This document shows positions 3,930 through 4,124 of a DNA stretch of 4,160 nucleotides, piece after piece (the stretch's first letter is position 1; every line of letters begins with the position of its first letter). The notes below the pieces were generated by a model. It was given only the letters and a program-made list of their open reading frames with translations, was not told where the DNA came from and did not search any database. The position numbers and the translations under genes are program-made. The stretch is from Escherichia coli (GTDB lineage: Bacteria > Pseudomonadota > Gammaproteobacteria > Enterobacterales > Enterobacteriaceae), in NCBI RefSeq assembly GCF_003334385.1, contig NZ_QOWN01000089.1, one strand, 5' to 3'.

Positions 3930-4124
3930 ATGACATTTATTCATCAGGTGATGCTGTACTTCTGTACGGCGGTCTGTGTGCTGTATCTTCTTTCGGGTGG
4001 GTACAGGGCAGTGCGCGATTTCTGGCGCAGGCAGATTGATAAAAGGGCCGCAGAGAAAATCAGCGCCAGTCAGTCAGCCGGAGCAAAAACAGAAGCCCCA
4101 CTCATTCCGGAACAACCTTCTTAA
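3930..4124 (+). CDS. Hypothetical small single-pass membrane protein (64 aa)
   Basis: ORF with hydrophobic segment VMLYFCTAVCVLYLLSGG followed by a basic stretch (RAVRDFWRRQIDKRAAEK) and a weak SD-like GGTAAG upstream. Position between the esterase gene and the probable start of the next gene (ATG at 4150). No homology could be checked. Confidence 0.4.
   Translation: MTFIHQVMLYFCTAVCVLYLLSGGYRAVRDFWRRQIDKRAAEKISASQSAGAKTEAPLIPEQPS

Follow-up and report, generated by a model that had tools for sequence, protein, structure and literature searches.

A DUF1378 gene ahead of the lysis genes of a lambdoid Escherichia coli prophage encodes a predicted single-helix membrane protein and possible accessory lysis factor

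Does the small open reading frame (ORF) that lies between an esterase gene and the lysis region of a lambdoid prophage encode a protein, and could that protein take part in lysis? The question arises from a stretch of 4,160 nucleotides of Escherichia coli DNA (assembly GCF_003334385.1, contig NZ_QOWN01000089.1), called here the window at its full length, which represents the late region of an E. coli prophage, lambdoid and of the Shiga toxin (Stx) phage type, without stx genes. An earlier sequence-only reading had drawn attention to a 64-amino-acid ORF at positions 3930-4124, and this ORF was borne out: it lies on the plus strand, begins with the ATG at 3930, ends with the TAA stop codon at 4122-4124, and is a coding sequence of the DUF1378 family. 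The ORF is a true protein-coding gene under purifying selection, and we consider, with reserve, that its product may be an accessory membrane factor of phage lysis.

The 64-amino-acid protein matches the Pfam family DUF1378 (PF07125) over its full length (hmmscan, E=1e-34; query residues 1-59 against positions 1-59 of the 59-position model), as well as PHROG 494 (E=6e-37). Both are families of unknown function, and an NCBIfam search with the protein returned no family. All homologues of the protein carry PF07125, and the DNA of the ORF is 100% identical to that of the 'DUF1378 family protein' WP_000142785.1 in E. coli O104:H4 and in other complete genomes. The DUF1378 entity is already catalogued in Pfam and annotated in RefSeq and is not new; a single sentence mentions the gene in the Stx-phage context (PMC10462455). 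What is added by our analysis is the topology of the protein, the selection acting on it, its recurring lysis-operon context, its strict co-occurrence with DUF826 and a negative test of its membership in the releasin family.

Conservation across prophages, which the sequence-only reading had proposed as a check, was examined in an allele set drawn from 80 related viral contigs plus further loci. The frame was intact and began with ATG in 36 of the 36 distinct coding sequences, which were 59, 60 or 64 codons long and varied also in their C-terminal sequence. The lack of frame conservation that the sequence-only reading had named as a refutation did therefore not occur. The pooled ratio of nonsynonymous to synonymous substitution rates (dN/dS, Nei-Gojobori) over the 36 alleles was about 0.22, with the predicted transmembrane (TM) helix as the most constrained region (0.17) and the tail at 0.27. 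The variable sites numbered 35, 25 and 54 at codon positions 1, 2 and 3, respectively, an excess at the third position. If the ORF were not a gene, it would be a chance frame or a decaying remnant left between the esterase gene and the downstream DUF826 gene, and in the window allele the weakness of the putative Shine-Dalgarno-like element GGTAAG (3919-3924, plus strand, 5 nt before the ATG) could be taken in that sense. A purine-rich element is, nevertheless, found at this position in every homologous locus examined, often in a stronger form (GGAG, GGAGG or AAGGA in the divergent ones). The intact alleles and their dN/dS, a profile match that extends to species-level divergent relatives, and the retention of the gene in different genomic contexts all stand against such an explanation, which conservation at the sequence level effectively refutes. 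A terminator-like hairpin at 3964-3986, within the ORF, was considered and discarded as a chance match, as a clean T-run is missing and the hairpin falls within coding sequence.

What kind of protein is encoded? The sequence-only reading had expected one TM helix followed by a basic cytoplasmic tail, and both features held up. The Kyte-Doolittle hydropathy over 19 residues has its maximum of 1.93 at residues 3-21, and among the 53 stop-free segments of at least 40 amino acids in the six frames of the window this ORF is the only one to reach 1.9. The residues ahead of the hydrophobic segment (MTFIHQ) are uncharged and the next 15 residues after the segment carry a net charge of +4; in the whole tail, eight K/R stand against five D/E. 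The same charge asymmetry was present in all 15 DUF1378 members examined (15/15), some of them only about 30% identical, with 0 or -1 in the N-terminal flank and +2 to +5 in the C-terminal one. Since the N-terminal flank is uncharged and the C-terminal flank basic, the positive-inside rule predicts an N-out/C-in orientation with a cytoplasmic tail. AlphaFold2, supplied with an 18-sequence alignment, gave a single helix over residues 2-50 and disorder over residues 51-64, at a mean predicted local distance difference test score (pLDDT) of 70. The pLDDT values were 74-88 over the first 40 residues, 81-88 in the TM helix and 50-55 at the end, where no secondary structure was modelled. DUF1378 is predicted to be a bitopic inner-membrane protein, N-out/C-in, with only 2-5 periplasmic residues.

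Along the gene, all on the plus strand, the predicted TM helix spans residues of about 3-25 (FIHQVMLYFCTAVCVLYLLSGGY; 3936-4004), as indicated by hydropathy, conservation and AlphaFold2. It is followed by a basic juxtamembrane or cytoplasmic helix, residues 26-50 (RAVRDFWRRQIDKRAAEKISASQSA; 4005-4079), supported by charge and AlphaFold2, and by a variable, probably disordered C-terminal end, residues 51-64 (4080-4121), supported by AlphaFold2 and the allele variation. The TM helix is about 22 residues long, its positions 12, 16 and 22-24 are occupied by small or polar residues (C/S-xxx-C/S ... S/A-G-G), and it ends in the family motif LYL-x-[SA]-G-G-[YW]; at the cytoplasmic interface an aromatic residue and an Arg/Lys cluster are followed by a short helix and the variable end. 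M1, L9, V15, L20 and G24 are invariant in the family, while G23 and R29 are conserved in at least 90% of its members. The family consensus reads MTF-x4-LLYF[CS]T-x-V[CS]-x-LYL-x-[SA]GG[YW]-x2-[IV]R, past which the sequence is Lys/Arg-rich and then Ala/Glu/Lys-rich or Ser/Pro-rich, and variable in length. As the invariant positions cluster at the helix and the junction, the conserved part of the protein is the membrane helix with its cytoplasmic junction, and not the tail. DUF1378 proteins are about 45-90 amino acids long and consist of an N-terminal hydrophobic helix with the family motif and a basic stretch behind it, a description that fits the protein of the window. A sequence search of the PDB with the family profile returned TRAP-gamma only, as an insignificant match (E=0.12).

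An architecture of this kind raises the possibility that the protein forms pores by itself, as a tiny holin, pinholin or viroporin-like protein; its TM helices would then oligomerise and let ions through, so that the membrane depolarises. The general hallmarks of holins, namely a TM helix and a charged C-terminus encoded in the lysis region, speak for it; the small-residue face (positions 12, 16, 23 and 24) could pack helices against one another, and the layout presumably resembles that of N-out/C-in viroporins. However, every DUF1378 cassette already has one or two recognisable holins, the protein shows neither similarity to a holin family nor a dual-start motif (its second Met, at position 8, is unconserved), and the gene is carried in prophages of 18% of complete E. 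coli genomes, in no more than seven copies each. We regard a pore-forming function as very improbable.

In complete E. coli genomes, the DUF1378 gene was found at 2307 places in 1000 of 5426 genomes (about 18%), the copy number having a median of 2 and reaching 7 at most; these and all the following counts of places in such genomes were made at megablast sensitivity. By megablast, it is also present in 304 deposited phage records, nearly all of them Stx-converting or related phages of E. coli and Shigella. An exhaustive profile search of 1.84 billion representative proteins returned only 38 clusters. The named members all belong to Enterobacterales (Escherichia, Shigella, Salmonella, Klebsiella, Raoultella, Kosakonia, Kluyvera, Enterobacter, Pantoea, Erwinia, Hafnia and Symbiopectobacterium), with none from Shewanella, and they are encoded in late or accessory regions of phages and prophages of this order. 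Among cultured phages the family is essentially confined to the Stx-type and lambdoid phages of E. coli and Shigella: a tblastn search of the deposited phages with a Klebsiella-type member gave no match. A scan of viral contigs with a three-sequence alignment yielded no confirmed relatives.

The E. coli-type loci share a fixed gene order, which held for every such locus with enough flanking sequence: NanS-p-like esterase, DUF1378, DUF826, S21-type class II holin, in some loci YdfR/DUF1327, then an R21-type lysozyme with a SAR-like (signal-arrest-release) N-terminus, and Rz. The upstream esterases are 41-98% identical to that of the window. The spacer between esterase and DUF1378 measures 140-175 nt in nearly all of these loci, DUF826 begins 20-45 nt past DUF1378 in every one of them, and the S21-type holin begins 340-410 nt past it. 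The window itself follows this order. The ORF is downstream of an esterase gene, as the sequence-only reading had stated; this gene (1808-3790, plus strand, from the ORF list and the annotation of homologous loci) encodes a SASA-family, NanS-p-like carbohydrate esterase of 660 amino acids, and its counterparts in homologous loci match the Pfam families DUF1737, SASA and DUF6645. A further ORF had been noticed to start at 4150 and had been taken as a probable lysis gene. The start was correct (ATG, MSE...), whereas the assignment was not: annotation of near-identical loci identifies it as the DUF826 gene, of which the window holds the first codons (4150-4160, plus strand) before its end cuts the gene, and the holin lies one gene further.

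The scan of the 139-nt spacer between the esterase gene and the ORF (3791-3929) for promoters and terminators disclosed no sigma-70-like promoter. Since the ORF has no promoter of its own and the late transcript must cross it to arrive at S and R, late and Q-dependent expression would be expected; the Q antiterminator gene itself lies outside the window. In Stx2a strains, nanS-p was reported to rise by 1-2.4 logs on mitomycin C treatment (PMC10462455). Just past the esterase stop codon, at 3804-3816, we also observed a GC-rich hairpin which has an A-run beside it on the plus strand and is terminator-like on the minus strand only; no evident minus-strand gene for it to serve is present in the window.

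DUF826 is an acidic, soluble-looking protein of unknown function, found at 2310 places in 1002 complete E. coli genomes as compared with 2307 places in 1000 genomes for DUF1378. For the S21-type holin the count is 8829 places in 2435 genomes, and about 26% of these loci are accompanied by DUF1378. DUF1378 and DUF826 behave like one unit of two genes, which goes with only about a quarter of the S21-holin cassettes. This raises the question of whether DUF1378 is the membrane-anchor half of a DUF826 module, possibly including NanS-p, in which the basic tail would recruit the acidic DUF826 and the function would belong to the pair. The near-identical distributions in E. coli are in line with such a pair, as are the close spacing of the two genes in every E. 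coli-type locus, their joint presence in a Mu-like phage, and two distant loci in which an acidic, Ala/Glu/Pro-rich protein of about 75 amino acids is encoded downstream of DUF1378. Most members outside E. coli, however, have no DUF826 neighbour, suggesting that DUF1378 works without it; the 76-amino-acid neighbour in one distant locus (L091) has no Pfam DUF826 match, and the alignment of such neighbours with DUF826 was unconvincing. We hold the anchor function to be distinctly unlikely.

Fusion of the two genes does not change this assessment, as the two apparent fusion proteins are singletons and the open +1 frame is compatible with chance (p about 0.11). The DUF826 frame, which is +1 to DUF1378 (3952-4149 in the window), is open for 62-72 codons 5' of its ATG in most of about 80 loci, and gene callers sometimes extend DUF826 to 127-132 amino acids. 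We examined a programmed frameshift or fusion between DUF1378 and DUF826 and rejected it: the +1 frame stays open into DUF826 over 57 codons, yet 11% of synonymous randomisations match this. The idea of fusion is equally unsupported by the frame-fusion proteins P0126 and P0131, each a database singleton. DUF826 bears the annotation 'head completion protein' in the phage PhiR5_1, apparently in error.

Is there, then, a context that recurs beyond E. coli? The distant members, down to 27-35% identity, are encoded directly after or inside about 12 different lysis cassettes of other Enterobacterales, in line with the earlier view of a small phage membrane protein in the late region near the lysis genes. 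The backbones of these cassettes are lambdoid-like, and at least one has T7-like packaging genes. Several arrangements were found: holin, SAR-like lysozyme, Rz/Rz1 and DUF1378 (loci L087/L094/L095, L097/L099, L100/L116 and L101); holin, endolysin, the small holin-like DUF7940, Rz, Rz1 and DUF1378 (L096, L098 and the Klebsiella loci L111-L113); muramidase, holin, Rz and DUF1378 (L088); holin, lysozyme and DUF1378, with the T7-like packaging genes on the contig (L091); and endolysin, DUF1378 and a DUF2570 protein (L090), the last being i-spanin-like by sequence, with an N-terminal TM segment and then a coiled-coil-like stretch. By PHROG and Pfam assignment the holins (PF04971, PF16083, PHROG 20, 126, 1350 and 13249), the endolysins (PF00959 lysozyme, PF11860 muramidase and the GH19-type PHROG 181) and the Rz-like spanins (PHROG 13, 214 and 2466) are unrelated between cassettes. 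In five of them (L092, L096, L097, L111 and L116), there is a 4-nt overlap between the ATG of DUF1378 and the stop codon of the Rz or Rz1 gene ahead of it, an arrangement unusual for inserts with their own transcription. Such overlaps argue for co-translation with the lysis genes and not for an independent insert, and in these cassettes the DUF1378 gene appears to be part of the lysis operon. In the Klebsiella loci L111-L113 we also noticed, directly downstream of DUF1378, a Tad2-like gene (PF11195; 5302-5577), which is split into two short ORFs in two of the three loci; we take Tad2 to be an anti-Thoeris counter-defence family.

The reading we favour, if with less than even confidence, is that DUF1378 is expressed late, as an accessory membrane factor in N-out/C-in orientation, and modulates lysis. 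According to this reading, the gene would be transcribed only on the Q-dependent late transcript that runs on to DUF826, the S21-type pinholin, the SAR lysozyme and the spanins. Judging from the gene neighbourhood of the distant relatives, its product would be an accessory lysis factor, not an essential one, working in the inner membrane via its conserved TM helix. There it might tune the time of holin triggering or the release of a membrane-tethered endolysin, and in doing so might contact the lysis proteins or a conserved component of the host membrane. As the holins and endolysins of the cassettes are too varied to share one partner, the target would be generic (e.g. membrane energisation) or a conserved host component, and not one phage protein.

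Several observations weigh against a role in lysis. The protein has no detectable homology to any characterised lysis protein, and we found no functional study of DUF1378 or DUF826 proteins in the literature. The S21-R21-Rz-Rz1 cassette alone lyses E. coli when expressed from plasmids, and about 74% of the S21-holin loci are without DUF1378, which means that DUF1378 is no obligatory partner of the pinholin and is not required for pinholin lysis. In E. coli, the tightest linkage of DUF1378 is with DUF826 and the esterase. Both flanks of the lambdoid lysis cassette are classical insertion sites for accessory genes, so that the neighbourhood alone is weak evidence. In Mu-like prophages (including L107) DUF1378 lies far from the lysis genes: in those of Hafnia (L114/L115) and Enterobacter (L117/L118) a DUF1378 gene of 48-50 codons stands at the extreme right end, at about position 5001, where it follows a tail-fibre assembly gene and adjoins a gene for a Dam-like methylase or an O-acyltransferase, behind which host genes begin. 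Finally, the basic tail of DUF1378 differs from the acidic tail of the Mu releasin.

Alternatively, DUF1378 might be a late 'moron-like' membrane protein, aimed at a component of the host inner membrane for a purpose other than lysis. It could, for example, exclude the DNA of superinfecting phages during the lytic cycle, or inhibit or modulate a host membrane enzyme or transporter; the TM helix would bind its target and the basic tail merely anchor it, in the manner of protein E of phiX174. The family is small (38 representatives) and confined to Enterobacterales, and its TM helix is conserved while the phage lysis partners vary completely, which fits a host target better. The right-end accessory position in the Mu-like prophages and the three quarters of S21-holin loci that lack the gene agree with this, as does the fact that DUF1378 travels with the accessory NanS-p and DUF826, also into a Mu-like phage. 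In that case, a Mu-like phage within the Stx phages LC727895 and LC727881 (L093, 2812-5464, and L102, 2786-5473), we observed a three-gene block after gin, consisting of a NanS-p-like esterase (680-692 amino acids), DUF1378 (60 amino acids) and a DUF826-like protein (81-84 amino acids); the whole block has thus passed between unrelated phage types. On the other hand, the lack of an own promoter or terminator in the window implies no expression in the lysogen, where exclusion matters most, and the 4-nt overlaps with Rz/Rz1, like the one case in which the gene is flanked by an endolysin and a spanin-like gene, indicate that it is integrated into lysis operons. The sequence-only reading had named superinfection factors among the possible families; this was not supported, as the PADLOC defence and exclusion models matched neither the 64-amino-acid protein, nor two distant members, nor DUF826. 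We consider a host-directed function unlikely, if still to be taken seriously.

If, as we tentatively favour, DUF1378 does modulate lysis, it would influence the timing of the burst and, in Stx phages, the release of the toxin. Toxin release depends on phage lysis, and a lysis-timing factor would affect both burst size and toxin output. Two recent studies, on Mu gp25 and on Lcc6 from the phage LambdaSo, both compared with DUF1378 below, showed that the lysis machinery sometimes includes more than holin, endolysin and spanin. DUF1378 offers a definite further candidate that can readily be put to the test, in hosts with well-developed genetics. Should its deletion have no lysis phenotype, the family would be one more conserved accessory membrane protein.

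Over the 381 bases around the DUF1378 ORF, identity to Escherichia phage PhiR5_1 amounts to 99.7%. The remainder of the window holds further genes. At 52-546 (plus strand) lies the C-terminal part of an ORF that is DNA methylase-like, as recognised by sequence motif alone; it ends ...DLVADFFMGSGSTVKAAMALGRRATGVE..., a motif typical of N6/N4 DNA methyltransferases, and related loci have a 347-amino-acid N6_N4_Mtase gene at the matching position. Three tRNA genes follow at 587-836 (plus strand, ARAGORN), with the anticodons CAT, TCG and TCT. The first is called tRNA-Met by ARAGORN, while its counterpart in the Sakai prophage Sp5 is annotated as tRNA-Ile (ileZ), and the other two are argN and argO; together they are the usual rare-codon set of Stx-type prophages. 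Two tandem copies of the STnc100 small RNA family (Rfam RF02076) lie at 970-1178 and 1374-1586 on the plus strand. Their scores are 122 and 147 bits, where the gathering score is 47; the two align with 79% identity, and a hairpin plus T-run terminates each of them. The pair stands between the tRNA genes and the esterase gene, which is the position of the stx operon in Stx phages, and one STnc100 copy was described 75 nt downstream of stx2B in a 2025 paper (PMC12370729). The tandem STnc100 in a prophage without stx may mark a site of toxin-gene gain or loss.

How does DUF1378 compare with known systems? Examples of its known family members are ECs1210 of the E. coli O157:H7 Sakai prophage Sp5 and an ORF without a name that 933W and other Stx phages carry between nanS-p and S. 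The window gene occupies the same slot, between the NanS-p esterase and DUF826/holin, and nothing distinguishes it from them.

Among lysis proteins, the sequence-only reading had suggested a likeness to holins, antiholins or spanin-like proteins, which was not confirmed at the family level: Pfam, PHROG and NCBIfam searches gave no match to holin, antiholin, spanin or releasin families. With holins and antiholins (lambda S105/S107, S21 68/71, T4 T/RI) DUF1378 shares the small size, the membrane location, the charged C-terminus and the place in the late lysis region. Unlike holins, it has no dual-start motif, and the true class II holin is encoded two genes downstream; the TM helix and charged tail are present in DUF1378, whose gene in this phage lies two genes upstream of the recognised holin and does not adjoin the endolysin gene. 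To our knowledge, a single-TM, N-out/C-in arrangement is none of the three classical holin topologies.

Like spanins, DUF1378 has an N-terminal TM helix, and in many members outside E. coli its gene is adjacent to Rz/Rz1. An i-spanin was rejected, since the charge bias predicts N-out/C-in, opposite to Rz, and the tail has only about 39-40 residues with no match to an Rz family. The periplasmic coiled coil of Rz comprises some 100 residues or more, whereas the DUF1378 family has 35-60 extramembrane residues, predicted to be cytoplasmic; separate Rz-like spanin genes are, moreover, already present in the DUF1378-bearing cassettes. An o-spanin was likewise dismissed, as there is no lipobox and no basic n-region, and Cys12 and Cys16 are preceded by F and V-x, respectively, and are replaced by Ser in distant members.

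The releasin of phage Mu, gp25, comes closer in design. It is a protein of 99 amino acids, N-out/C-in, with an Arg/Lys junction, and is needed to free the SAR endolysin; its family, DUF2730 (PF10805), pairs with SAR as well as non-SAR endolysins (PMC9239132). DUF1378 is similarly a small, presumably late-expressed and predicted N-out/C-in, membrane-tethered cytoplasmic protein with an Arg/Lys junction and an endolysin encoded within a few genes, and it too is found with SAR as well as non-SAR endolysins. The design described for releasins, an N-terminal TM helix, N-out/C-in topology and a gene at most about five genes from the endolysin (PMC9239132), is thus found in DUF1378 as well, as resemblance and not as membership. 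Assignment of DUF1378 to the releasin family was rejected, as hhalign against the gp25/DUF2730 alignment gave a probability of 0.09% (E=0.57) and there was no PF10805 match. The two also differ in what is conserved: gp25 has an acidic cytoplasmic domain of 73 residues that is conserved throughout, while in DUF1378, at 45-90 amino acids, it is the TM helix that is conserved, and the tail is basic and variable. Mu, furthermore, has no holin, in contrast to the DUF1378 cassettes.

Lcc6 (SO_4795) of the lambdoid Shewanella oneidensis prophage LambdaSo is a protein of 65 amino acids whose TM segment occupies residues 5-22 and is followed by 43 residues in the cytoplasm; it is strictly required for lysis by a pinholin, SAR endolysin and Rz-Rz1 and is harmless alone (bioRxiv 10.1101/2024.01.23.576932). 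DUF1378 has nearly the same size and layout, a likeness taken from the published description only. Lcc6 is essential, and its gene lies close to int/xis and well away from the lysis cassette, whereas DUF1378 cannot be essential for S21-type lysis. We regard the Mu releasin and Lcc6 as the nearest precedents for DUF1378, probably in function and not by homology. DUF1378 could even represent an unrecognised class of lysis co-factors in Enterobacterales phages, which in Stx phages would help to set when and how much Shiga toxin is released, though on balance we doubt it; its members would be the sequence-unrelated counterparts of releasin and Lcc6, with a TM helix that times the action of the holin or the SAR endolysin.

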